From an archaeon (GTDB lineage: Archaea > Nanobdellota > Nanobdellia > Woesearchaeales > UBA9642), in contig JAGVGF010000002.1 in assembly GCA_020057295.1 (NCBI GenBank), positions 190,276 through 254,275 of the forward strand: 64,000 nt of DNA. The letters run 5' to 3'. The notes below the pieces were generated by a model. The model was given only the letters and a program-made list of their open reading frames with translations, did no database searches and was not told where the DNA came from. Position 1 is the stretch's first letter; every line of letters begins with the position of its first letter. The position numbers were made by a program, and so were the translations under genes. Below, one piece after another: positions 1,399 to 63,829 of this stretch.

Positions 1399-1965
1399 TT
1401 ACTGTATTGTTATCTTCTTAATAAGAATTGGTGTTGATGGTCTATCTTGTGAATTTCTTTGAACCATGCTTATCTTATCAACAATATCTTGTCCCTTAAC
1501 AACTTGACCAAAGATTGCATGTTTTCCATCAAGCCATGGTGTTGGAACCGTTGTTATGAAGAATTGACTTCCACCAGTATTTGGTCCAGCATTTGCCATT
1601 GATAATCTTCCTGACTGATTATGTTTTAATCCTGGTCCGAATTCATCTTTAATCATATAACCTGGTCCACCAGTTCCATCGCCTTTAGGATCTCCTGTTT
1701 GTACCATGAAGTTTGGTATTACTCTATGAAATGTTACGTTGTTGTAATATCCGCTTTGTGATAATTTGATAAAGTTTGCCGTGGTGTTAGGTGCTTTATC
1801 TTCGTAAAGTTCTGCTTCTACAGTTCCCATACTAGTTTCTATAATTGCATGTCTGTTCATTTTTGTTTCCTCCCCTGTATTGTTATTTTTAGAATTTACA
1901 CATCCGGCAATTATAAACATGCCGGAAAACAATATTATTATCCATAAAGCATTTGTTTTTTTCAT
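1399..1965 (-). CDS. ppiB: cyclophilin-type peptidyl-prolyl cis-trans isomerase, predicted lipoprotein
   Basis: Cyclophilin signatures '[14 protein letters not shown]', 'GGPGY', '[18 protein letters not shown]', '[12 protein letters not shown]'; N-terminal signal with lipobox 'IIAGC'; start at 1965 preferred over the track start 2004 because AGGTGA lies 6 nt upstream and it avoids overlap with the upstream gene. Confidence 0.85.
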
Positions 1966-1973
1966 TTTTTCAC

Positions 1974-2894
1974 CTATAATAAAAAGAATATTATCAGGAA
2001 CCAAATAATGTATATCAACGGCACTATAATAAATACGCTAAACTCTGTTTTTCTATGGAATTTTTCAACTTTATCAGCATGTTTTCTTTCAGTTAATTCT
2101 AGTAAGAAAACATTTAACACTATTGTTGCAAGTATTATTCCGTATGTAATTACCATAAATTGATCGGCCATTGTCATATATCCGACTGGTGGTATCTGAT
2201 TGCTAATAGATATATGAAACATTACTGAGGCAGTAAGTGCTGCTGTTGTCATTGTAAGCCTTGTTGTTATCTTGTCAGGATCTAATACAAATGTAAATAA
2301 TACTATTAATATTATAAATAATATTGGTAAAAATGTCTTAATGAAAGAATTCATGAATATTTTTTCAATCTTAATATGGAATCTATATTGTGAATATTTC
2401 TCATCATAAACATCGTATGTGTGCTCTACTGCATCTGACTCCCACTTGTCAAGCTCCCATCCAGTAAATATTATGCTAGGATCAATTCCACTTTCTTTAT
2501 CATTCGTCACATAATTAATTACATCGATAGTATTTCTTTTATCTTCAATAATTATCATCATATCTTGACTATCGAATGGAAATTTTCTCAAATCTACTGG
2601 TGAATTTAGTGTTGCTTGAATTCTGTAGAATTTTTCTTTTGGCGTATCAATTATTTTATCCACGCTTGTTGCTCGTCCGTTCATGAATTCAAAGCTTTCT
2701 GGACTGCAATTTTCTTCACATTGAAAATTAAGATAAAAGTCAGCTGTAAACGAACCAGTTGCTACATCGAATTTCCCTAAATTCAATATATACATAGAAA
2801 CTTTGACATCTTGCGCGTGAACTTGTGGCACAATTAACAATGCAAGTAACAAGCTAAAAAATATTATAAGATTATATTTATTCATACTATTCAA
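1974..2894 (-). CDS. pentameric ligand-gated ion channel (prokaryotic Cys-loop receptor homologue, GLIC/ELIC-like)
   Basis: Signal peptide, ~190-aa extracellular domain containing the Cys-loop core motif 'FPFDSQD', then four TM helices: M1 with conserved 'FLP', polar-lined M2 '[15 protein letters not shown]', M3, short loop, M4. Confidence 0.6.
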
Positions 2895-3025
2895 CCCCTA
2901 ATTATTACTATGGAAAAAATGTTTGTTTTTAAAGTTTGTTAAAGAAGATTTTATCAATTAATTTTTCCTTCTATAGTAGTTACTGTTTCGAAATATTTAT
3001 AAAATCTTTGACTTTCTTTCATTTT

Positions 3026-3628
3026 ATGGAAGAAGTGCTTGATCATGTACTTAGATCGCATCGAGGATGGATTGCTCTAGTATATGGTCCTATGTTTGCG
3101 AAAAAATCTACTGTATTAATTGATGAATTACATAGGGCAGAAACTCATGCAAAATTAAATGTTCAAGCATTTAAACCGGTTATAGATAATAGATATGGTA
3201 ATAGATATATAGTTTCTCATGATGGTCTGAAATTTCCTGCTACTGAAGTAAAAGGTACTTCTGGAATAGTTGCTAAACTTGATTCTGCTGTTGAAGTTAT
3301 AGGAATAAGTGAATCACAATTTTTTGATCCGGAACTTATAGATTTTTGTTTAGAACAAAGACAGTATGGAAGAAAAATAATATTAGAAGGATTACTTACG
3401 GATTTTAGAAAAAAACCATTTCCATTTAAAGGATCAAGAAAAACTATGACTGATTTATTAGTTCATGTCGATTTCCCTATACCTAGAATTGCTTTTTGTT
3501 ATTCTTGTGGAGAACCAGCAATGTATACTATGAGAACAGTTGCTTCCAAAGCACAAGTATTAGTTGGTGGAAAAGATGCATATGTTGCCGCATGTTATAA
3601 ACATCATCAAATTCCAAAATTAGATTAA
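3026..3628 (+). CDS. tdk: thymidine kinase
   Basis: P-loop 'VYGPMFAKKST', 'FFD' motif and C-terminal Zn-ribbon ('CYSCGEPAMYTMR...AACYKHH'); start moved to the internal Met at 3026. Confidence 0.85.
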   Translation: MEEVLDHVLRSHRGWIALVYGPMFAKKSTVLIDELHRAETHAKLNVQAFKPVIDNRYGNRYIVSHDGLKFPATEVKGTSGIVAKLDSAVEVIGISESQFFDPELIDFCLEQRQYGRKIILEGLLTDFRKKPFPFKGSRKTMTDLLVHVDFPIPRIAFCYSCGEPAMYTMRTVASKAQVLVGGKDAYVAACYKHHQIPKLD

Positions 3629-4453: not shown

Positions 4454-4609
4454 TTATAAATCTAATTTTTCTTTTATTTCTTTACTAGAAAGTTTTTTTT
4501 GACATTCGTTGCATACACCGTACTGTTTTTTTCCTTTACGGTATACTGTGCCTATTATTTTATTCATGAATGTAATTTCAATCTTTTTATTGCATATAGA
4601 ACACTTCAT
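4454..4609 (-). CDS. small zinc-ribbon protein (51 aa), not in the ORF track
   Basis: Translates to MKCSICNKKIEITFMNKIIGTVYRKGKKQYGVCNECQKK...; two CxxC pairs; start overlaps the stop of the upstream gene at 4606. Confidence 0.3.
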   Translation of the reverse strand: MKCSICNKKIEITFMNKIIGTVYRKGKKQYGVCNECQKKLSSKEIKEKLDL

Positions 4610-4983
4610 TTTCTTATTATTATTCTCTTCTTATCCTTGCCTTTAATTCTTTGTTCTACTTCCTTAGATTCCATTGTTTGTAATATTTGATCTAATTGGT
4701 CGAACATCTTTTTTAAGTCTACAAGGTCTGTTTCTAATTCCCATGTTGTTTTATTATCTTTTTTCTGATTATTTATAGCCATATTCATCTTGTTGGCTAA
4801 TTTTTCTAAGAATTCTAGAGATTCCTGAACGGCATCTTTAGTTTTATATGTTCCTTTCTTAAGGCATTTTTTTATTTCTTCTAAAGAATCACGTTCAAAT
4901 TTTTCTAATTCGTAAGGAATATATGCTCTATCCTTTAATTGAGATTCAGATACACTCTTTAAATAATCTTCACTTAGTGGCAT
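4606..4983 (-). CDS. hypothetical coiled-coil protein
   Basis: 125-aa charged, helical ORF with no recognisable motif. Confidence 0.4.
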   Translation of the reverse strand: MPLSEDYLKSVSESQLKDRAYIPYELEKFERDSLEEIKKCLKKGTYKTKDAVQESLEFLEKLANKMNMAINNQKKDNKTTWELETDLVDLKKMFDQLDQILQTMESKEVEQRIKGKDKKRIIIRK

Positions 4984-5015
4984 ATTATCCTATAATTATG
5001 TGTTGTTTTAATATT

Positions 5016-5576
5016 TTATGCTTTATTAGAACTTTGTTCCTTGGCAAGTAATTCTTTCATGCGTGGCCATTCATCTTCATCTAATATGTATCCTACACAT
5101 TTTTCTGAACCACATCTACATGGATGTTTCTTAAAATCGTATATATCTTTCTCGTTAAGTTCAAAACCGTAATTATATGTTATCTCTTCGCCTTTCTTTA
5201 TTTCCTTAATTGTGTCAATCCATACTCTTCCATCGATTATATCAACTTCACAGTTTGGATCACATGAATGATTGATGTATTTACCGTCATTGTCTGGAAC
5301 ATCTCCATCTAAATCCCATGTATCATCTATTTCAAAAATATATGTTCCAGCATGATTCTCAGGATCGTTAGTATGTTTTTCAAAAGTATGTCCTAATATC
5401 ATATCGCCAGCTTCCTTATCTACTTTTATGCCTACATATTCCATTATTCTAGTTCCTTTTGGAATATCGGCTCGTGCAAATACTCCGTGCCTATGTATGC
5501 CTGAACCACCTACTTTTACATATGGGTGATTATCTTTAGAGTCATGTTTATGTTTTTTGTCGTTTGTTTTGTTCAT
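5016..5576 (-). CDS. SET-domain protein-lysine N-methyltransferase
   Basis: SET motifs 'GIHRHGVFA', 'NHSCDPNC', 'GEEITYNYG' plus Cys-rich post-SET 'CRCGSEKCVG'. Confidence 0.8.
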   Translation of the reverse strand: MNKTNDKKHKHDSKDNHPYVKVGGSGIHRHGVFARADIPKGTRIMEYVGIKVDKEAGDMILGHTFEKHTNDPENHAGTYIFEIDDTWDLDGDVPDNDGKYINHSCDPNCEVDIIDGRVWIDTIKEIKKGEEITYNYGFELNEKDIYDFKKHPCRCGSEKCVGYILDEDEWPRMKELLAKEQSSNKA

Positions 5577-8050: not shown

Positions 8051-9244
8051 TTAGTAATCTAAAATTTTCTTTTGTGTATTCATTTGTCTTGCTAGTACGC
8101 TCTGGTTCAAGAAATGATCTAGAGAGTAACCAAATTTTTTTATATATTCAGATGCAAATCTTAACATTTCCTCTTTTGTATCAAACATAAATGGTTTGCT
8201 GCTCATTGTATTCTTTACAGCTTGCCTTACAACCCATACTCCTAATGGTGCCCAATATTCATCAGATACGAATCTTAAAGCGAGTACTGTTGTTTGTTTC
8301 TTAATAGCTTTTAATTGTTCAAGAATACTTAATCTGGCTGCGTAATATCCTCCAACTGTTTCTGTGGCATAACCTTTACGGCCGTAATAATTTTCCCAAT
8401 CATGACTAGAATCCTTATTACCAATCATTGTTTCAAAAAGTTCGTATGACCAAACTTCAGGATAACATAAAAGGATATAATAATTGCCAAAATAACTTCC
8501 AATATATATAGTGTATTTATCTATTTGAGAATAATTTTTTACTTCTTTGATAAGGTTTTTTCCTATTGTATCATCAACGGCTGTAATGGACCAACGTGTT
8601 GGAACAAGTTTCTTGTTTGTATCCAGTCCAAGATGTCCGCTGCTAAATATTTTTGTTAAGTAATGATTTTCGTAACCTTTCCCATGAAGTATATTTAGAG
8701 ATTCTGTTGATGTTAACTCGTCATTAATTATGCTGTCAACTTTTGTTGGTATATGAACATTTTCAGTAATCCTCGCTTTTTCAAGCTCCACTTTTGGACC
8801 ATGAGGACTAACTTCATTATGAAAAACTAATTTGAATTCAGGTTTCTTGTTTAAATAAATTTCAGTATCTACAGGTTTGTCTGCTAGTGCAACTTCACTA
8901 AACACATCTCTTAATCTATCATTAAATCCTCTTATACTACTTTTGAAACTAGAATTTATGAGCATCGAACGTTTCTGAATAATCTCATTAATATCAAAAC
9001 CTTGACTAACCCATTCTTTAGGATCATCAACAGTAGAATCCTTAATAGTGTTATCTGTATTAAGTAATCCAACATTTACATTGGGATAACCGTAATGTCC
9101 TATAAATACATTATAATTTTCACCATAAAAATCTTTCTTAGAATTTTCGTTAAATGCTTTTCTAATATGCAAATGTTCTTTTAAGATACATACTGGTCTA
9201 TCGCATTTACCTTTGCCTATACATCTAAAACAAAGTTCTCCCAT
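8051..9244 (-). CDS. archaeal Nre-family (putative DNA repair) protein
   Basis: N-terminal 'LCFRCIGKGKCDRPVC' resembles the Cys cluster recalled for archaeal Nre proteins; ~400 aa; assignment from memory only. Confidence 0.4.
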   Translation of the reverse strand: MGELCFRCIGKGKCDRPVCILKEHLHIRKAFNENSKKDFYGENYNVFIGHYGYPNVNVGLLNTDNTIKDSTVDDPKEWVSQGFDINEIIQKRSMLINSSFKSSIRGFNDRLRDVFSEVALADKPVDTEIYLNKKPEFKLVFHNEVSPHGPKVELEKARITENVHIPTKVDSIINDELTSTESLNILHGKGYENHYLTKIFSSGHLGLDTNKKLVPTRWSITAVDDTIGKNLIKEVKNYSQIDKYTIYIGSYFGNYYILLCYPEVWSYELFETMIGNKDSSHDWENYYGRKGYATETVGGYYAARLSILEQLKAIKKQTTVLALRFVSDEYWAPLGVWVVRQAVKNTMSSKPFMFDTKEEMLRFASEYIKKFGYSLDHFLNQSVLARQMNTQKKILDY

Positions 9245-13635: not shown

Positions 13636-14000
13636 CTAACCGAATATGTGTGTGATCCAGTAAGCGAATTGATTCCACCAATTACCTATAGTTGACCATA
13701 TACCTGTAGGTGAAGATTCCAATGCAACATTACCTGTAATTAGGTTTCCACTATTACTTGTATTTCCATTATTATTTTGATTTGTTGCTACAGTATTTTG
13801 TTCATTATTATTTTGATTTGTTGTTGGTACTATTGGTGTGGTCGTATTTTGTTTTGGAACTGTTGCTTGTCCTGGTGTACATGATTTTGTTCTTGTCAAT
13901 GTTGTATTGCTATTGTCTGTGTAACATATTTGTGAACTTACGCCTTCTGAATTACATGTTGACCATGTTTCACATTGCAATGGTATTCCTCCTGATGAGC
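13636..14000 (-). repeat. C-terminal module coding repeat, copy 1 (near-identical to 19110..19500)
   Basis: Long identical runs shared with copy 2 (e.g. TGTCCTGGTGTACATGATTTTGTTCTTGTCAATGTTGT...TTACGCCTTCTGAATTACATGTTGACCATGTTTCACATTG); antisense ORFs 13758..14033 and 19337..19540 give near-identical peptides. Confidence 0.7.
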
Positions 14001-17000
14001 CTCCACTACTACCTCCTCCACTCGAAGATGTGACAACTGGTGCAGCAGCTTCTGAATATGTTACAAATTGTGTAAAATGTTTTGTCCAAATAATTAAATC
14101 GTTTCCAACATCTATTTTACAATCGCTTTCAATAGGCAGTAAGTCATTAGCAACTTGAGTATCATTCAAACAAACATTAAGTATTTTTGTAAATACTCCT
14201 GCTCTCGAATAACCCGTAAGTTTTCCTGCCTGACCAGATATTACAAGTCGAGCTGCATTATCAAATGTCAATTTAGTATCACCATAGCCCACTTCAACAA
14301 CTGATAAAACAGTGTTAGTCATTCCATTATTTACTGTTGGCGTTACGCTTGTTAGAACATTAACTGTTGGAACATTCATTATGCCATTCCAATCCTCAGG
14401 ACCAGAAATGGTTGTTCCTGAAGGCAATGTTACACTATAATCAGTTCCTAATGTATCTCTTGAAAGTGTTAAATCATTTGATAAATTAACAGATGTAAAA
14501 TTTGTTGTTACATTTGTTATATTATTAGTTACTGAATTAGTCGTTGTTAAAAGAGACAAATCTAATGTTACTTGTTTTGTATCTTCTATGGTGTTTGGTA
14601 CATTAATATTCGTTAAAGGCGAACCAACCGGAACAAGTATATCTGTTGAATTTTCAGTTACGTTCATAACTTCAGAATCTGCTAATGTTTGATTTTCTGT
14701 TGGAATGTCTGTCATGTTAGTTGTCAATGCAGAGGTAGTATACCATGGTGCATAACTTACATTGCCAGAAATAACGGCTGTAAAATTAGGATTAGCACTG
14801 CCCCAATAATTATACGTTGCGTTAACAAATGGGTGAGTAGAACTTATACTAATATCATTATTAACAAATCTATTTTCGTGTGCAACTACAACAGTGTTAT
14901 CTATATCTGAATATCCAACTGCTATAGCTTCAGTACAGTTTGAAATCGTATTACCTGTTATAGTAGCACGAGTTCCTGTTCCGTAATAGTCCGTTACTAA
15001 AATTCCTGCCGATGTCGAACCGTCATTTGTTGTAACGCCCTTGCAATTTGATATAGCATTGTTAGATATTATTGCTGATGCTCCCGCACCTACTTCTATT
15101 CCATAATCTAAAAAATCACCTGATCCTTTTCCGACATAAGTATTGCCAGTAATCAAAGCGTTACCAATCGCTGGTCCACTATACGCTCCACGAACATGAA
15201 CTCCTATACGTTCAATGTTGCTGAATGTGTTGTTGCTGACTGTTATATTGCCAAACACTACGATTCCGCGGCCAGAGTACGTGCCTGCTTTAATGTTCTT
15301 TATAATATTATTGTTAATCGTTCCATCACCATAAGATGCTATTGCCCAATTAATTAATCGTGTTGGTGCATCACCATCTAGTGTTACATTACTTAAATTG
15401 AAATTCACACCGGTGTTAATCAGGAACCATGCTGCGCTATCAGCATTGTTGCCTGCAGTATCGGTTGATGGCTTTATGATTGTCGTTAGTTTATTAACTC
15501 CGACGATAGATACATTTTTGCTAATGACTATTTGTCCAGTTTCAGTATACGTTCCTGGTCCTACTTTAATCGTGTCGCCGCTCTGAGCAACTCTATCAAT
15601 CGGATATCGTTTTATTGCAGTGTAAATACCAGCAATATTAACAATATCTCCTGTTGAACCACAGCCGATGCAATCCCATGTACGCATTTCATTTGCTGGA
15701 GTCCAAACAGTTACAGATTTATCGAATGTGTTTGCAGTAAGAATAGCGTTCCAATCCAATGAACTATAACCTACATTTCCTTTGTAATTTCCCCAAGCAA
15801 TAACATGTCTACGATCTGCTGTTGTAAATTCATTATTAGTAATTGTTGCTGCTCCAACAGGATACACATCCCATAGATCTGCTTGTGGACCAACAAATTC
15901 AATTCCATCCATAACGTTCTCAAACTTATTACCTATAATTACACGATTAGCAACATCTCCACTCCAACCTGCACCGCTGCTAAAACGGATGCCAGAACCA
16001 TATAAGCCTGCTCCGCCACCATCTAGTAAGTTTCCTTCAATTCTATAAGATTGTAAATGAGAACTGTCTGTTCCCGAATCATACTTTGGATCGTACATAT
16101 AGATTGAAGAAACTCCATCCATTGCATTTATTACAGAATTTTTTATTACAACATTGTTCCCAATCACTTCAACTGTTTTAGTGTTCTCTCCACCGTTCCA
16201 TCCCAAAATTGTGAAACCAGAAATTACTACATTATCAGCTTGAACAAATATTGTGTCCTCATGCCCAGAGTTTAACAATTGTCTTTTTGGACTGATTGTT
16301 GCAAGGACATTATCATAATTTGTTATTACATTTCCATTATTATCAACACCTTGTATAGTGACTGATTTATCTACAAAGATATTGAAATCACTAGAACCTG
16401 CTCCGCCATCAACTTGATTACGGGAATTCGCTTCATCCTGGTTATATGTTCCAGGTGTGACATCAATTATATCGCCACTAGTGGCTGCATCAATCGCAGC
16501 CTGAATAGTATAAAAAGATTGCTCTCCTGAATCAAGAATGTTATTTACATTCGTATCAATGAAAACTGGACCTGAAAAATTCGTAGCGTTAGAAGTATAA
16601 ATAGATATGTTGTTAGAATCTAATGTTACTGCTGTTTGTGCTAATGCTCTTCCGTTTAATGTTGCTCCAGTTAGCATTGCAATATTTGTAGCATCTAAAA
16701 TATTTCCACTTAATACTGATGTTGTTCCAAGTGTTGTTGTGCTAGCGACTTGCCAGAAGATATTTTTTGACTGGCAACTTCCATTTAATATAACTTGCTT
16801 TGAAGAAGCAATATTTAGAGTATTTGCTATTTGAAATATAAACACACCATTCGAGTCTCCTTGACAATCAAGAACAACATTGTTATTTATCAATACCGAA
16901 GTACTTGGACCCCATTTGTAAATTCCTGGTGTTAAAGTCATTCCGCTAATGTCTCCTGCTCCAAGTTCGATATAATCTGCGGATCCTGTGCCATTAACTC

Positions 17001-17388
17001 TTCCAGCTGCATCATTGTAAGCAGTTGTCATATCATTTGTTGCAGTATTAATTTTAGCTGGGGTTGGAACAGCATAGTTATATGCATATATTTTTCCATT
17101 CACTAAAGTTGATGTAGAAAATTGATTAGAACTATCTAGAGTTAACGCGAAATTTCCTGTTATTGCTGTAGAAGTTACTGCAGGGCCGACACCAATATCT
17201 CCAACAATAGATGTTGTACCAGTAGAAGATATTCCGGAACCAGATAATATAACAAAGTCTGCAGTTGATCCGAGATTTACAATCGCGGGACTTGATGCAT
17301 TAACAAAGTATACCATAAATAAGAAAATTATGAGAATAAATACTATTGAATATACAACGATTTTTGATAATATCTTTTTCTGTTTCAT
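13636..17388 (-). CDS. giant secreted surface protein: DUF3494 (ice-binding-like) domain + right-handed beta-helix repeats + conserved Cys-rich C-terminal module
   Basis: Signal peptide; N-terminal domain 'VNLGSTADFVILSGSGISSTGTTSIVGDIGVGP...LTPGIYKWG...NIFWQV...LNGRALAQTAVTLD' is a classic DUF3494 pattern; central PbH1-type repeats ('GNTISNCTEAIAV...'); C-terminal GS linker, 'PLQCETWSTCNS...ICYT...TKSCTPGQ', N/T-rich stalk, 'WWNQFAYWITHIFG'. Confidence 0.8.
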   Translation of the reverse strand: MKQKKILSKIVVYSIVFILIIFLFMVYFVNASSPAIVNLGSTADFVILSGSGISSTGTTSIVGDIGVGPAVTSTAITGNFALTLDSSNQFSTSTLVNGKIYAYNYAVPTPAKINTATNDMTTAYNDAAGRVNGTGSADYIELGAGDISGMTLTPGIYKWGPSTSVLINNNVVLDCQGDSNGVFIFQIANTLNIASSKQVILNGSCQSKNIFWQVASTTTLGTTSVLSGNILDATNIAMLTGATLNGRALAQTAVTLDSNNISIYTSNATNFSGPVFIDTNVNNILDSGEQSFYTIQAAIDAATSGDIIDVTPGTYNQDEANSRNQVDGGAGSSDFNIFVDKSVTIQGVDNNGNVITNYDNVLATISPKRQLLNSGHEDTIFVQADNVVISGFTILGWNGGENTKTVEVIGNNVVIKNSVINAMDGVSSIYMYDPKYDSGTDSSHLQSYRIEGNLLDGGGAGLYGSGIRFSSGAGWSGDVANRVIIGNKFENVMDGIEFVGPQADLWDVYPVGAATITNNEFTTADRRHVIAWGNYKGNVGYSSLDWNAILTANTFDKSVTVWTPANEMRTWDCIGCGSTGDIVNIAGIYTAIKRYPIDRVAQSGDTIKVGPGTYTETGQIVISKNVSIVGVNKLTTIIKPSTDTAGNNADSAAWFLINTGVNFNLSNVTLDGDAPTRLINWAIASYGDGTINNNIIKNIKAGTYSGRGIVVFGNITVSNNTFSNIERIGVHVRGAYSGPAIGNALITGNTYVGKGSGDFLDYGIEVGAGASAIISNNAISNCKGVTTNDGSTSAGILVTDYYGTGTRATITGNTISNCTEAIAVGYSDIDNTVVVAHENRFVNNDISISSTHPFVNATYNYWGSANPNFTAVISGNVSYAPWYTTSALTTNMTDIPTENQTLADSEVMNVTENSTDILVPVGSPLTNINVPNTIEDTKQVTLDLSLLTTTNSVTNNITNVTTNFTSVNLSNDLTLSRDTLGTDYSVTLPSGTTISGPEDWNGIMNVPTVNVLTSVTPTVNNGMTNTVLSVVEVGYGDTKLTFDNAARLVISGQAGKLTGYSRAGVFTKILNVCLNDTQVANDLLPIESDCKIDVGNDLIIWTKHFTQFVTYSEAAAPVVTSSSGGGSSGGSSGGIPLQCETWSTCNSEGVSSQICYTDNSNTTLTRTKSCTPGQATVPKQNTTTPIVPTTNQNNNEQNTVATNQNNNGNTSNSGNLITGNVALESSPTGIWSTIGNWWNQFAYWITHIFG

Positions 17389-19109: not shown

Positions 19110-19500
19110 TTAACCAAATATGTGTGTGATCCAGTAGATGAACTGGCTCCACCATCGACCTATAGTTGACCATATTCCTGTAGGTGATGATTCTAATGCA
19201 ACGTTACCTGTAATTTGGTTTCCATCATTTGGTGTATTTCCATTATTATCTTGAACTACTGGTGTAGTCTGATTTACTGCCCAAGTGTTTTGTCCATTGT
19301 TACCTGTGTCTGTTACTGGTGTAGTTACGTTTTGTTTTGGAACTGTTGTTTGTCCTGGTGTACATGATTTTGTTCTTGTCAATGTTGTGTTGCTATTGTC
19401 CGTGTAACATATTTGTGAACTTACGCCTTCTGAATTACATGTTGACCATGTTTCACATTGTAATGGTGTTCCTCCTGATGAACCTCCACCGCCTCCTCCT
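19110..19500 (-). repeat. C-terminal module coding repeat, copy 2
   Basis: See 13636..14000. Confidence 0.7.
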
Positions 19501-21215
19501 GTGCTTGCTGGTGGTTGTACAACAGCAGCATCAGTTGTAAAGCTTGTAGTATTACTTACAGAATATCCTGCTTTATCATAACATGTAATATTTACTGTAT
19601 AAGCTGTACTAGAACTTAGACCGCTTAAACTAGCTGTGTATACTCCATTACTTAAAATTAAATTGCCGCTTCCCGCGCCTGTATAAGTACAATTATTTAT
19701 TCCAGAATACATATCACTAGCATTAATAGTAATGGTTGCACCACTACTAGTTACACTACCGCTGGATACACTGTTTGTTACTGGTGCAGTTTGATCTACA
19801 TAAACTGTAAACGAAGTCGTGTTTATGTTTGTAGCATTATCTCTTACAGTTAAGTTTACATAGTACGTACCATTTGTAGTAACAGTATATGTTTCTATTG
19901 CTGAAAGATTAATTGTGGTTGCTGTCCAATTCTGTAACAATCCTCCTGTAGAATTGTATACTGATAATGTCCAATTTATTAAGTTAGTATCATTAGCAGT
20001 AAAGTTAATACTTAATGTTGTGTCATTAGTACCGTAACCATTACTTACATTGTTGATACTATTAATTAATGATGTTGGCATAATTGTATCTATAAAAACC
20101 ATTCTATTACTAGAGTTAGTTACAACAGATCCGTCATCACAACTCATATACCAACTATTGTTACCTTCGCTTAATTGTGCATTAGCAGTAATAGCAGTAT
20201 TAGTATTATTAACAACTGAACTATTTGTTCCTACAGAAACATTGTTTGCATACAAAGTACAAGATGCTGTTGAAGCACCAACATACTTGAAAGTAAATGC
20301 TGGCATATTACTAGTATTCCATGTATTAGTTGTAGGATTTACTAAAGTTACTACTGGTGAACTTGTGCCAGTTGGCGATGTAACTATATTGGATTGCAAT
20401 GTAACTTGATCAGTTGATGCAAATAATTTACCAGTTATATTAGCACCAGTAAGTGCGTTTACTTCTGTCCATGCGAATACATTTCCATAAAAAACAGTGT
20501 TAGTTCCAATAACTGTTTTACCTGCTGTTCTCCAATAAACATTTTTTGCTTGTGCACCGTTTGCTAAAATTATATTACCTCCTGGGGCTCCAGTAATAAG
20601 AGTGCCTGTACCGACTATATTAAAAATCCACACGGAATTAGGATTACCTTCTGCATCTAGAGTTAAATTTCCTTGTTGTATTATTACATTGGAAGCAGTC
20701 TTATAGACTCCACGAGTAAGTGTTAAATTGCCTAATTCTGTTGGGCAAGATATTGTTGGTGCGTCAGGATTTGGGTCTGCAGCTAAATATGTGAATGCAA
20801 TTCCTAAATCAGTTTTTGCTTGAGTTATCATTGCACCGCTAGTTGTCCATGTTGCTCCAACAGGTAATGTTGAATAATGTAATGGATAAGGAAATGGTGC
20901 CGGATTAGAATCATCGGATGCGTATGATGTTCCGCCTGTAAGTTCAGTAAAATCTCCTGCAGGTCCAGTTGATGTGAATCCTGTAATGAACGTACGAGCT
21001 TGATCTTCTACACCAATATCTCCACCTGTAATATTACTGCCTACTGTTGTTGTGACTGTTTGACTAGCTAAAATTACGAATCTGCCTGCTTCTCCTAAAT
21101 CTGGAGCAGTTGGATTTTCTCCTACTGCATTAACGTTAATTGCACTAATTAATAATATAGTTGCAAAAATTGCAATATACATAAAGATGTTTGATGATGT
21201 GTTTTTTTGTTTCAT
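19110..21215 (-). CDS. secreted surface protein: DUF3494 (ice-binding-like) domain + Ig-like domains + conserved Cys-rich C-terminal module
   Basis: Signal peptide nearly identical to that of 21326..22546; DUF3494 motifs ('LGEAGRFVILASQTVTTT', 'LTRGVYKTASN', 'NVYWRTAG'); C-terminal ~120 aa ~90% identical to the C-terminus of 13636..17388. Confidence 0.8.
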   Translation of the reverse strand: MKQKNTSSNIFMYIAIFATILLISAINVNAVGENPTAPDLGEAGRFVILASQTVTTTVGSNITGGDIGVEDQARTFITGFTSTGPAGDFTELTGGTSYASDDSNPAPFPYPLHYSTLPVGATWTTSGAMITQAKTDLGIAFTYLAADPNPDAPTISCPTELGNLTLTRGVYKTASNVIIQQGNLTLDAEGNPNSVWIFNIVGTGTLITGAPGGNIILANGAQAKNVYWRTAGKTVIGTNTVFYGNVFAWTEVNALTGANITGKLFASTDQVTLQSNIVTSPTGTSSPVVTLVNPTTNTWNTSNMPAFTFKYVGASTASCTLYANNVSVGTNSSVVNNTNTAITANAQLSEGNNSWYMSCDDGSVVTNSSNRMVFIDTIMPTSLINSINNVSNGYGTNDTTLSINFTANDTNLINWTLSVYNSTGGLLQNWTATTINLSAIETYTVTTNGTYYVNLTVRDNATNINTTSFTVYVDQTAPVTNSVSSGSVTSSGATITINASDMYSGINNCTYTGAGSGNLILSNGVYTASLSGLSSSTAYTVNITCYDKAGYSVSNTTSFTTDAAVVQPPASTGGGGGGSSGGTPLQCETWSTCNSEGVSSQICYTDNSNTTLTRTKSCTPGQTTVPKQNVTTPVTDTGNNGQNTWAVNQTTPVVQDNNGNTPNDGNQITGNVALESSPTGIWSTIGRWWSQFIYWITHIFG

Positions 21216-52873: not shown

Positions 52874-52945
52874 ATGGCCCCGGCGCGAGTTGAACGCGCT
52901 ACCTTCGCTGAGTGAGAGCGACATCATACCGTTAGACCACGAGGC
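52874..52945 (-). tRNA. tRNA-Val (anticodon CAC), atypical U37
   Basis: Minus strand GGCCTCG-TG-GTCT-AACGGTA-TGAT-G-TCGCT-CTCACTC-AGCGA-AGGTA-GCGCG-TTCAACT-CGCGC-CGGGGCC-A; same D-arm architecture as the tRNA-Val(GAC) at 63758. Confidence 0.6.
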
Positions 52946-53019
52946 CGTTTGAATATTTTATTGTCGCTTAAAGCGACATTTGTTTTTTCCGAGGTTTTTT
53001 ATAAAAAAGCTCGCCAGGT

Positions 53020-63757: not shown

Positions 63758-63829
63758 GGGCTCATGGTCTAGTGGTATGACGTTTCCTTGACGTGGAAAA
63801 GGTCGCCGGTTCGAATCCGGCTGGGCCCA
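63758..63829 (+). tRNA. tRNA-Val (anticodon GAC)
   Basis: GGGCTCA-TG-GTCT-AGTGGTA-TGAC-G-TTTCC-TTGACGT-GGAAA-AGGTC-GCCGG-TTCGAAT-CCGGC-TGGGCCC-A; canonical T-loop, no encoded CCA. Confidence 0.85.

Follow-up and report, generated by a model that had tools for sequence, protein, structure and literature searches.

The 64,000-nucleotide (nt) stretch of DNA analyzed here (the window; GenBank assembly GCA_020057295.1, contig JAGVGF010000002.1, positions 190,276 to 254,275 of the forward strand) comes from an archaeon of the Woesearchaeales. Near its left end, on the minus strand, lies a gene for what is very probably a single subunit of an ion channel of the Cys-less, pentameric ligand-gated kind (pLGIC), or Pro-loop receptor, flanked by a cyclophilin gene downstream and a divergent thymidine kinase gene. 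A first-pass annotation made from the sequence alone had proposed such a homologue at this position, and the present analysis follows up that proposal.

The gene and its product

The list of open reading frames (ORFs) contains an uninterrupted minus-strand frame at 1974..2894 that encodes 306 amino acids (aa) when read from the TTG at 2894. Because the homologues begin with MKK... at what is here the fourth codon, and the ATG at 2885 is preceded, 9 nt upstream, by a GGGG motif, that ATG is the likely start codon, giving a protein of 303 aa followed by a TAG stop; all residue numbers below refer to this protein. The coding sequence (1974..2885, minus strand) was thus delimited from the ORF list and the homologue N-termini, and its identity as a Pro-loop receptor subunit rests on similarity to the proton-gated channel GLIC of Gloeobacter violaceus and on an AlphaFold2 model searched with Foldseek. 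A possible archaeal TATA-like box, TTTAAAAA, was picked out by eye, with low confidence, 41-48 nt upstream of the ATG (2926..2933, minus strand). The Joint Genome Institute gene call for this protein (P0001) is 273 aa long and omits the signal peptide.

All parts of the protein are encoded on the minus strand. Residues 1-24 (2814..2885) are a predicted signal peptide, as the first-pass annotation had proposed: the model has a hydrophobic helix at residues 3-17, and the family consensus at its end is P-x-[VA]-x-A followed by [QE]-[DE]. By the -3/-1 rule, cleavage is predicted after V22-H23-A24 and before Q25-D, which would leave a mature protein of ~279 residues. The extracellular β-sandwich (aa 25-175, 2361..2813) was delimited with DSSP on the model and a MAFFT alignment to GLIC, and comprises nine strands (25-36, 45-56, 65-67, 70-80, 84-94, 106-115, 123-127, 143-157 and 162-175). 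The ectodomain is therefore β-rich as had been claimed, although at ~151 aa in its mature form (Q25-K175) it falls well short of the ~190 aa originally estimated. It contains a C56-E-E-N-C60 turn (2706..2720), recognized from its conservation, and the tip of the Pro-loop ("Cys-loop"), F102-P103-F104-D105, without flanking cysteines (2571..2582). The latter is followed by S-Q, so that the FPFD(S)Q motif of the first-pass annotation can be read directly from the DNA, and it aligns with Y119-P120-F121-D122 of GLIC.

Four transmembrane helices follow in the model, as had been expected. The pre-M1 and M1 helix occupies aa 177-200 (2286..2357; modeled as helices 177-184 and 186-200), with the basic residue K175 just before it and the predicted conserved M1 proline present as the kink residue P187, which aligns with GLIC P204. 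The M2 pore helix (aa 203-230, 2196..2279), whose register was taken from an ungapped alignment to GABA-A (γ-aminobutyric acid type A) receptor α subunits and from GLIC, contains T207, T208, T211, T213, T214, T218 and S220, in agreement with its earlier description as Thr/Ser-lined. The M3 helix (aa 239-266, 2088..2171) comes after an M2-M3 loop of sequence I-P232-P233-V-G-Y, in which P232 aligns with GLIC P247, and the M4 helix (aa 270-302, 1980..2078) is joined to M3 by a cytoplasmic linker that is very short, like those of other prokaryotic pLGICs.

Homology and fold

When all PDB sequences were searched with phmmer, the only matches were pLGICs, headed by a GLIC-GABA-A α1 chimera (E = 8e-18) and GLIC itself (~1e-13), the alignment to GLIC running from residue ~87 to the C-terminus. 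A profile built from 85 homologues raised these matches to 6.6e-25 and ~1e-22, respectively. The two halves of the protein were also searched alone: the ectodomain matched only GLIC among solved structures (1e-5), and the transmembrane domain (TMD) matched sTeLIC best (9e-9), followed among others by GABA-A α subunits (~2e-6) and, as fourth-best family, DeCLIC (7e-6).

The AlphaFold2 model, a single chain built on the 85-homologue alignment, has a mean predicted local distance difference test score of 93.1 and a predicted template modeling (TM) score of 0.79, with the nine β-strands succeeded by the four helices. In a Foldseek comparison of this model with the PDB, the highest-ranking chains were all from pLGICs, among them GLIC, GABA-A, glycine receptors and RDL (E ~1e-20, TM scores 0.76-0.82), and in sequence as in structure the resemblance greatly exceeds what chance would produce. 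The β-sandwich plus four-helix bundle that had been anticipated is thus what was predicted, and it superposes on GLIC at a TM score of ~0.8. Together with the sequence profiles and the signature residues described next, this upholds the assignment of the protein as a pLGIC homologue.

Signature residues of the superfamily

Jaiteh et al. (2016, PMC4795631; their Table 1) listed the residues conserved across the pLGIC superfamily, and we looked for each of them in the query, in an alignment of its clade (85 homologues; mean column identity 50%, 43 invariant columns) and in an alignment of 130 representatives of the wider subfamily. All seven signature positions were found, as F102/P103/D105, W143, K175, P187 and P232, in addition to R209 at the 0' position of M2. 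In the [F/Y]PxD Pro-loop motif (F102/P103/D105; Y119-D122 in GLIC) the proline and the aspartate are invariant in 85/85 clade members, and the proline in 130/130 wider representatives. The buried aromatic of strand β9 (W143; GLIC W160), the M1 kink proline (P187), the M2-M3 proline (P232) and the basic residue at M2 0' (R209, where GLIC has N224) are likewise invariant in the clade. The basic residue before M1 that partners the Pro-loop aspartate (GLIC R192) is K175 in the query; arginine occupies this position in 80% of the clade and lysine in 20%, and arginine in 105 of the 130 wider representatives.

The disulfide cysteines that flank the β6-β7 loop in Cys-loop receptors are absent from the query. 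Because its sole cysteines, C56 and C60, follow strand β2, the query counts among the Cys-less Pro-loop receptors typical of prokaryotes. It retains the whole coupling core that Jaiteh et al. identified, an argument for a functional transduction pathway from ligand to pore.

A compact subfamily

The query ectodomain is ~40 aa shorter than that of GLIC, and the MAFFT alignment locates the difference: from the end of β2 to the N-G-R of β5 there are 20 residues in the query and 43 in GLIC, and nearly all 130 representatives resemble the query in this. The alignment thus assigns the loss to the β2-β3 loop and strand β3, in keeping with nine modeled strands against the canonical ten. At this place C56 and C60 are invariant in 85/85 clade members, 63 of which have exactly two cysteines in all, and a C-x3-6-C pair occurs in ~80 of the 130 wider representatives. 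From this conservation we infer that C56-E-E-N-C60 is probably a disulfide-stapled turn that stands in for the β2-β3 hairpin. At ~279 residues, the mature query may be among the smallest natural pLGICs known.

On the alignments, then, the query belongs to a sizeable, strongly conserved and previously undescribed subfamily of compact pLGICs, whose hallmarks as judged from sequence are the loss of the β3 hairpin, the C-x3-C turn, an invariant histidine at the 15' position of M2, and no glutamate at -1' or -2'.

The M2 pore

The M2 prime positions of the query are T207 (-2'), T208 (-1'), R209 (0'), T211 (2'), A215 (6'), T218 (9') and M222 (13'), followed by H224 (15'), I225 (16') and N229 (20'). 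The corresponding pore lining of the clade consensus is T/A/S at -2', T at -1', T/G/A at 2', S at 6' and V/I at 9', then M at 13', I/V at 16' and N at 20'. The 15' histidine is invariant in the clade and is a histidine in almost all of the 130 wider representatives. Acidic residues are absent from -1' and -2', and the closest one belongs to the invariant D204-K205 pair at -5'/-4'.

The 9' residue is valine in 68/85 clade members and isoleucine in 11/85, and threonine in the query and its three closest relatives, P0002, P0003 and P0004. The same four proteins are the only ones among the 85 with alanine at 6'; the other 81 all have 6' serine, together with 9' valine or isoleucine in 79 and alanine in 2, so that the polarities of the two positions are swapped in perfect covariation. 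In animal receptors, polar substitutions at 9' favor opening.

With respect to ion selectivity, the spacing from the M1 proline to 0' aligns without a gap to GABA-A α subunits and requires a two-residue gap against sTeLIC and GLIC. Because the -1'/-2' glutamate is absent and the M1-M2 linker is gapless to GABA-A α, an anion-type filter is hinted at, and we lean slightly toward a channel that would be anion-permeable or weakly selective.

Distribution and origin

The first-pass annotation regarded prokaryotic pLGICs as rare and archaeal ones as rarer still, and for this lineage that view proved wrong. A search of 5.8 billion proteins returned 482 matches, the best 120 of which are 57-80% identical to the query and ~297 aa long; all of these 120 are annotated "hypothetical", and those with organism names come from metagenome-assembled genomes (MAGs) of Woesearchaeota, Nanoarchaeia or Nanoarchaeota. 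When each GTDB species, represented by one genome, was scanned with a pattern based on an alignment, a relative proved to be encoded in 113 genomes; a single-protein query of the genomes gave no match. Given 482 homologues and 113 species-level genomes, the gene is not rare in its lineage.

For locus-level counts we kept 80 GTDB loci. By label these belong to Woesearchaeota (31), Pacearchaeota (13), Nanoarchaeota/Nanoarchaeia (13), Aenigmatarchaeota (3) and unclassified archaea (10), the remainder being labeled "uncultured Methanosarcinales" (9) and Alphaproteobacteria (1). The proteins at the loci with Methanosarcinales labels (L005, L018-L021, L035, L061, L065 and L080) and the Alphaproteobacteria label (L007) are typical of the clade and ~58-64% identical to the query, and the labels are probably taxonomic misassignments or the result of mis-binned contigs; the GC content of these loci, 0.34-0.48, does not settle the matter. 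One Pacearchaeota MAG (JZ-2_201901_bins_146) carries two pLGIC genes on different contigs (L047 6001-6846 and L076 528-1322) whose products are ~80% identical. Paralogues, and possibly heteromers, therefore exist in the clade; a search for a second pLGIC copy in the window found none.

Beyond the clade, a HMMER search of 1.84 billion representatives clustered at 50% identity gave 3559 matches at E<=1e-3, of which 992 also passed 1e-10 and 159 passed 1e-30, and across which identity to the query declines smoothly from 59% to ~25%. A profile built from 65 distant representatives recovered sequences from Aenigmarchaeota, Micrarchaeota, Norongarragalinales, Chloroflexi, Dehalococcoidales and SAR202, and the distant members from Aenigmarchaeota, Micrarchaeota and Chloroflexota are 25-50% identical. 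In a neighbor-joining tree, which is rough and indicative only, the Woesearchaeota and Nanoarchaeia sequences, the query among them, form one tight clade, and the sister group holds Chloroflexota, Micrarchaeota and Aenigmarchaeota.

These related sequences in Chloroflexota, the ten loci that bear Methanosarcinales or Alphaproteobacteria labels, and the unusual polar 9' residue of the query could be taken to mean that the gene is a nonfunctional relic, encodes a nonconducting receptor-like protein, or is a recent bacterial import or bin contaminant. We consider this hardly credible. Neither in the window nor at any of the 80 loci is the reading frame broken, conservation within the clade is strong and includes pore and coupling residues, and the branch of the clade in the rough tree is distinct from that of the Chloroflexota. 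The GC content of the gene (0.30) equals that of the rest of the window, which also contains a gene for the archaeal Nre protein (8051-9244, minus strand; Nre_N 8e-74, Nre_C 8e-30). The Nre gene and the names of the closest homologues also bear out the earlier statement that the genome is archaeal.

The putative ligand site and the question of proton gating

GLIC is the closest overall relative of known structure, and it was reasonable to ask whether the residues through which it senses protons have counterparts in the query. Activation of GLIC involves the titratable residues E26, E35 (its key sensor of protons), E222, H235 (11') and E243 (Nemecz et al. 2017, PMC5760087), and these align with N35, G44, T207, S220 and S228 of the query. 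Because the sensor positions are replaced, proton sensing of the GLIC type is not conserved, although pH sensitivity could arise through other residues.

The orthosteric positions present a different picture. In GLIC the principal face of an inter-subunit pocket for carboxylates consists of R77, E181, I131 and R133, and its complementary face of R105, N152 and F42 (PMC7336382). The former align with E66, Y164, E114 and K116 of the query, and the latter with R88, D135 and Y51. Conservation in the clade reaches at least 96% for every one of the seven residues at these pocket positions, and the wider subfamily keeps most of them; the loop-C residues H155, Y157, Y160 and E162 are equally conserved. 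Because the GLIC sensor positions are not conserved while the residues at orthosteric positions are invariant, the alignments suggest that the agonist would be a specific small charged molecule or ion, rather than protons acting in the manner of GLIC.

On the other hand, it was not unreasonable to consider that the protein is a pLGIC gated by pH or an inorganic ion (by protons, by alkaline pH as in sTeLIC, or by divalent cations as in DeCLIC) through conserved acidic residues of the ectodomain. The ectodomain alone matches only GLIC, and the TMD alone is closest to sTeLIC, with DeCLIC also matched; the clade has many invariant titratable residues (D40, D49, E66, D105, E114, D115, D135, H155, E162, H224 and H277); and at 6 of the 80 loci a gene for a Ca-type P-type ATPase lies directly upstream. 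Against this, G44 and S220 stand where GLIC has E35 and H235, and E26, E222 and E243 are equally unconserved, while loop C, with its many tyrosines, and the Arg/Glu pair found at orthosteric positions resemble a small-molecule site. Neither argument is decisive, and we regard gating by pH or an inorganic ion as unlikely, though it is the alternative to be taken most seriously.

The cyclophilin gene and the genomic neighborhood

Immediately downstream of the channel gene lies a gene for a cyclophilin-type peptidyl-prolyl isomerase (1399..1965, minus strand; 188 aa from the ATG at 1965; Pfam Pro_isomerase 1e-51) with the lipobox IIAGC. It begins 8 nt past the channel stop, and a Shine-Dalgarno-like AGGTGA overlaps the channel TAG; from this layout, the two genes are probably co-transcribed in the window. 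A cyclophilin gene is also directly downstream of the channel gene in the three closest relatives, P0002 (80% identical), P0003 (76%) and P0004 (75%); from smallest to largest, the three gaps are 1, 26 and 52 nt.

The 8-nt spacing with its overlapping ribosome-binding motif, the adjacency in these relatives, and the lipobox found both in the window and at L083 (2563-3096; IIGC) would fit a functional pair, in which an extracytoplasmic prolyl isomerase folds or regulates the Pro-loop and the M2-M3 loop of the channel. Expression of homo-oligomeric nicotinic and 5-hydroxytryptamine type 3 (5-HT3) receptors has been reported to depend on cyclophilin. However, at none of the 80 GTDB loci do a cyclophilin gene and the channel gene adjoin, the one match (L066) being ~3 kb away, and there is none at L001, whose channel is 75% identical to the query. 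Moreover, the cyclophilins at L081 (4917-5375, MRNATIYT...) and L084 (3787-4269, MNRHATIE...), two of the four orthologues, have no signal peptide and would hence be cytoplasmic. The pair also sits within a broader synteny of the sub-clade, so that close relatedness can account for the adjacency: a SET-domain protein (186 aa, E = 5e-22), a 124-aa ORF and a Cys-rich 51-aa ORF, at 4454-5576 (minus strand) in the window, recur in synteny at L084 86-1290, on the contig of the 76%-identical P0003. SET-domain methyltransferases are uncommon in archaea. Because the pairing is confined to this sub-clade and the export signal is variable, we judge a functional coupling of channel and cyclophilin very unlikely. 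The lipoprotein-type cyclophilin next to the channel in the first-pass annotation is thus real in the window, and a cyclophilin gene adjoins the channel gene in the three closest relatives, but the arrangement does not extend beyond a narrow sub-clade, and the lipoprotein signal is present in only two of four orthologues.

A conserved operon partner was rejected more generally. With tblastn, the ten window neighbors of the channel gene gave essentially no matches at the 80 GTDB loci, and the nine other than the cyclophilin none at all; clustering of 1102 neighboring ORFs revealed no partner at more than 8 of the 80 loci.

The Ca-type ATPase mentioned above is of type IIA (PMR1/SERCA-like). Relative to the channel gene, its gene is 93-400 nt upstream, on the same strand at L024 (3311-5938), L004 (3252-5852), L040 (1496-4135), L071 (3238-5877) and L073 (3070-5709) and on the opposite strand at L016 (918-3566). 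The channels at these six loci are only ~60-66% identical to one another. This recurrent adjacency gives a weak hint of a link to cation homeostasis, a hint rather than evidence, and no such P-type ATPase was found in the window.

Other features of the surroundings were noted in passing. Divergent from the channel gene is a thymidine kinase gene (2936-3628, plus strand; Pfam TK 2e-35), whose ORF has a low-complexity N-terminal extension of ~30 aa, so that the true start is probably the ATG at 3026. Farther along the window are two minus-strand genes for proteins with an N-terminal Ice_binding-like domain, one of 1250 aa (13636-17388; 6e-67) with additional β-helix and DUF1565 regions and one of 701 aa (19110-21215; 2e-54), giant proteins that probably belong to the surface of the archaeon or serve in adhesion. 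The window also carries two tRNA-Val genes, at 52875-52946 (minus strand) and 63758-63829 (plus strand), with anticodons CAC and GAC, and no rRNA genes. At L081, the contig of P0004, the channel gene has a reverse-transcriptase gene (RVT_1, 1410-2654) 1.3 kb upstream and an intein-bearing GyrB downstream (8730-8915).

A proposed mechanism and its weighing

By homology to GLIC, ELIC, sTeLIC and the animal receptors, the signal peptide would be cleaved, the 151-aa β-sandwich would face the cell exterior and M1-M4 would span the membrane, with five copies assembling around a pore lined by M2. The agonist would bind at the interface between neighboring ectodomains, and the signal would pass to M2 through D40 of the β1-β2 loop, the F-P-F-D of the Pro-loop, the pre-M1 basic residue K/R175 and P232 of the M2-M3 loop, upon which a hydrophobic constriction (9' V, 13' M and 16' I in the clade consensus) would open. 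The physiological role would be the sensing of an external or host-derived solute.

Several observations weigh against this account of the query as a channel subunit or against parts of it. Scores with the curated family models fall below their cut-offs: for Pfam, Neur_chan_LBD (PF02931) gave E = 1.2e-4 and 22.0 bits (gathering threshold 26) and Neur_chan_memb (PF02932) E = 6.4e-3 and 17.2 bits (28.1), and for NCBIfam, TIGR00860 (LIC) gave E = 5e-17 and 61.7 bits (280) and NF033918 (LGIC_1) E = 1e-14 and 54.8 bits (500). The query has threonine at 9', not a hydrophobic residue, where 75% of the superfamily has leucine and 13% phenylalanine (Jaiteh et al. 2016, PMC4795631). The invariance of the pocket residues could instead reflect structural or inter-subunit salt bridges. 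With regard to selectivity, the pre-M2 motif is insufficient for prediction in prokaryotic members (Jaiteh et al., PMC4795631), and in view of that caution we judged it an unreliable guide. In addition, the best TMD match, to the cation channel sTeLIC, and the Ca-type ATPase upstream at 6 of 80 loci point weakly to cations.

The sub-threshold scores are a matter of divergence from the seed families and no argument against homology. Both Pfam models, the profile check envisaged at the outset, gave significant E-values, and precomputed PF02931 or PF02932 matches are present on many clade members; because Pfam annotation already tags these, a routine pipeline could arrive at the family assignment. 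Taking the evidence together, we consider it very probable that the query is a subunit of a Cys-less pLGIC.

Significance

According to Jaiteh et al. (2016, PMC4795631), prokaryotic pLGICs have in no case a known physiological role. The alignments indicate that DPANN archaea, with their reduced genomes, harbor a large clade on which purifying selection is strong, and because reduced genomes tend to keep only useful genes, this clade is a good place to seek a function and a native ligand. The compact subfamily might serve as a dedicated chemosensor in DPANN episymbionts and some Chloroflexota, converting the binding of a host-derived or environmental solute in the Glu/Arg/Asp/Tyr pocket into ion flux, a proposal we put forward as speculative and improbable; were it true, the protein would be a minimal model for the core that couples ligand to pore. 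In any case, the naturally trimmed ectodomain may offer structural biologists a minimal receptor core. The query is an ordinary homologue of a well-known family, and the conceptual surprise is modest, but it provides a useful lead for both the pLGIC and the DPANN fields.

Comparison with known systems

Methanosarcina, other Euryarchaeota and Thaumarchaeota are the sources of the archaeal pLGICs published so far (Jaiteh et al. 2016, PMC4795631; Tasneem 2005 as cited there). Like the query these are archaeal Cys-less Pro-loop receptors. The lineages named in these surveys, the earlier as cited in the later, include none of the DPANN, and it is by such lineage lists that the query is set apart from the Thaumarchaeota clade. 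In the full-text literature (subscription journals not covered) we found no paper tying pLGICs to DPANN, Woesearchaeota, Micrarchaeota or Chloroflexi. What is added here is the commonness of the gene in its lineage, the compact subfamily with its C-x3-C turn and 15' histidine, and the loss of the proton-sensor residues alongside invariant orthosteric positions.

The anion-selective Cys-loop receptors of animals, the GABA-A α and glycine receptors, align with the query TMD without gaps from M1 through M3 (E ~2e-6). They have an M1-M2 linker of equal length and a similar ISIS.N..P.V.Y motif, they are among the top Foldseek matches, and the GLIC-GABA-A α1 chimera outscores GLIC itself. However, the query lacks their Cys-loop disulfide, N-terminal helix and long M3-M4 cytoplasmic domain, has T-T-R before M2 where they have P-A-R and methionine where they have threonine at 13', and is of prokaryotic origin.

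Among prokaryotic channels, sTeLIC (PDB 6FL9) and DeCLIC (PDB 6V4A) are the best and fourth-best families in the TMD-only search; the former is an alkaline-pH-gated channel from a Tevnia endosymbiont. Both have a short M3-M4 linker and an L/IP..GY motif in the M2-M3 loop, as does the query, but their ectodomains have no detectable sequence similarity to that of the query, whose M1-M2 linker is two residues longer and which is without the large extra N-terminal domains of DeCLIC.

GLIC (PDB 3EAM/4HFI) is the best overall match in both sequence and structure (E 1e-13, TM score ~0.8). Identity is only 17-19%, the query ectodomain is the shorter by ~40 aa with a C-x3-C turn in place of β3, and E35, H235 and the -2' E222 of GLIC are absent; the TMDs are also unlike, GLIC falling outside the top 60 TMD-only matches. 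Even so, the two are alike as Cys-less Pro-loop receptors with a short M3-M4 linker and a loop C of equal length, and they have in common the coupling residues Y/F-P-F-D, W160, R192, P204 and P247 (GLIC numbering; the pre-M1 residue is basic in both) as well as the pocket arginine, R105 in GLIC and R88 in the query.

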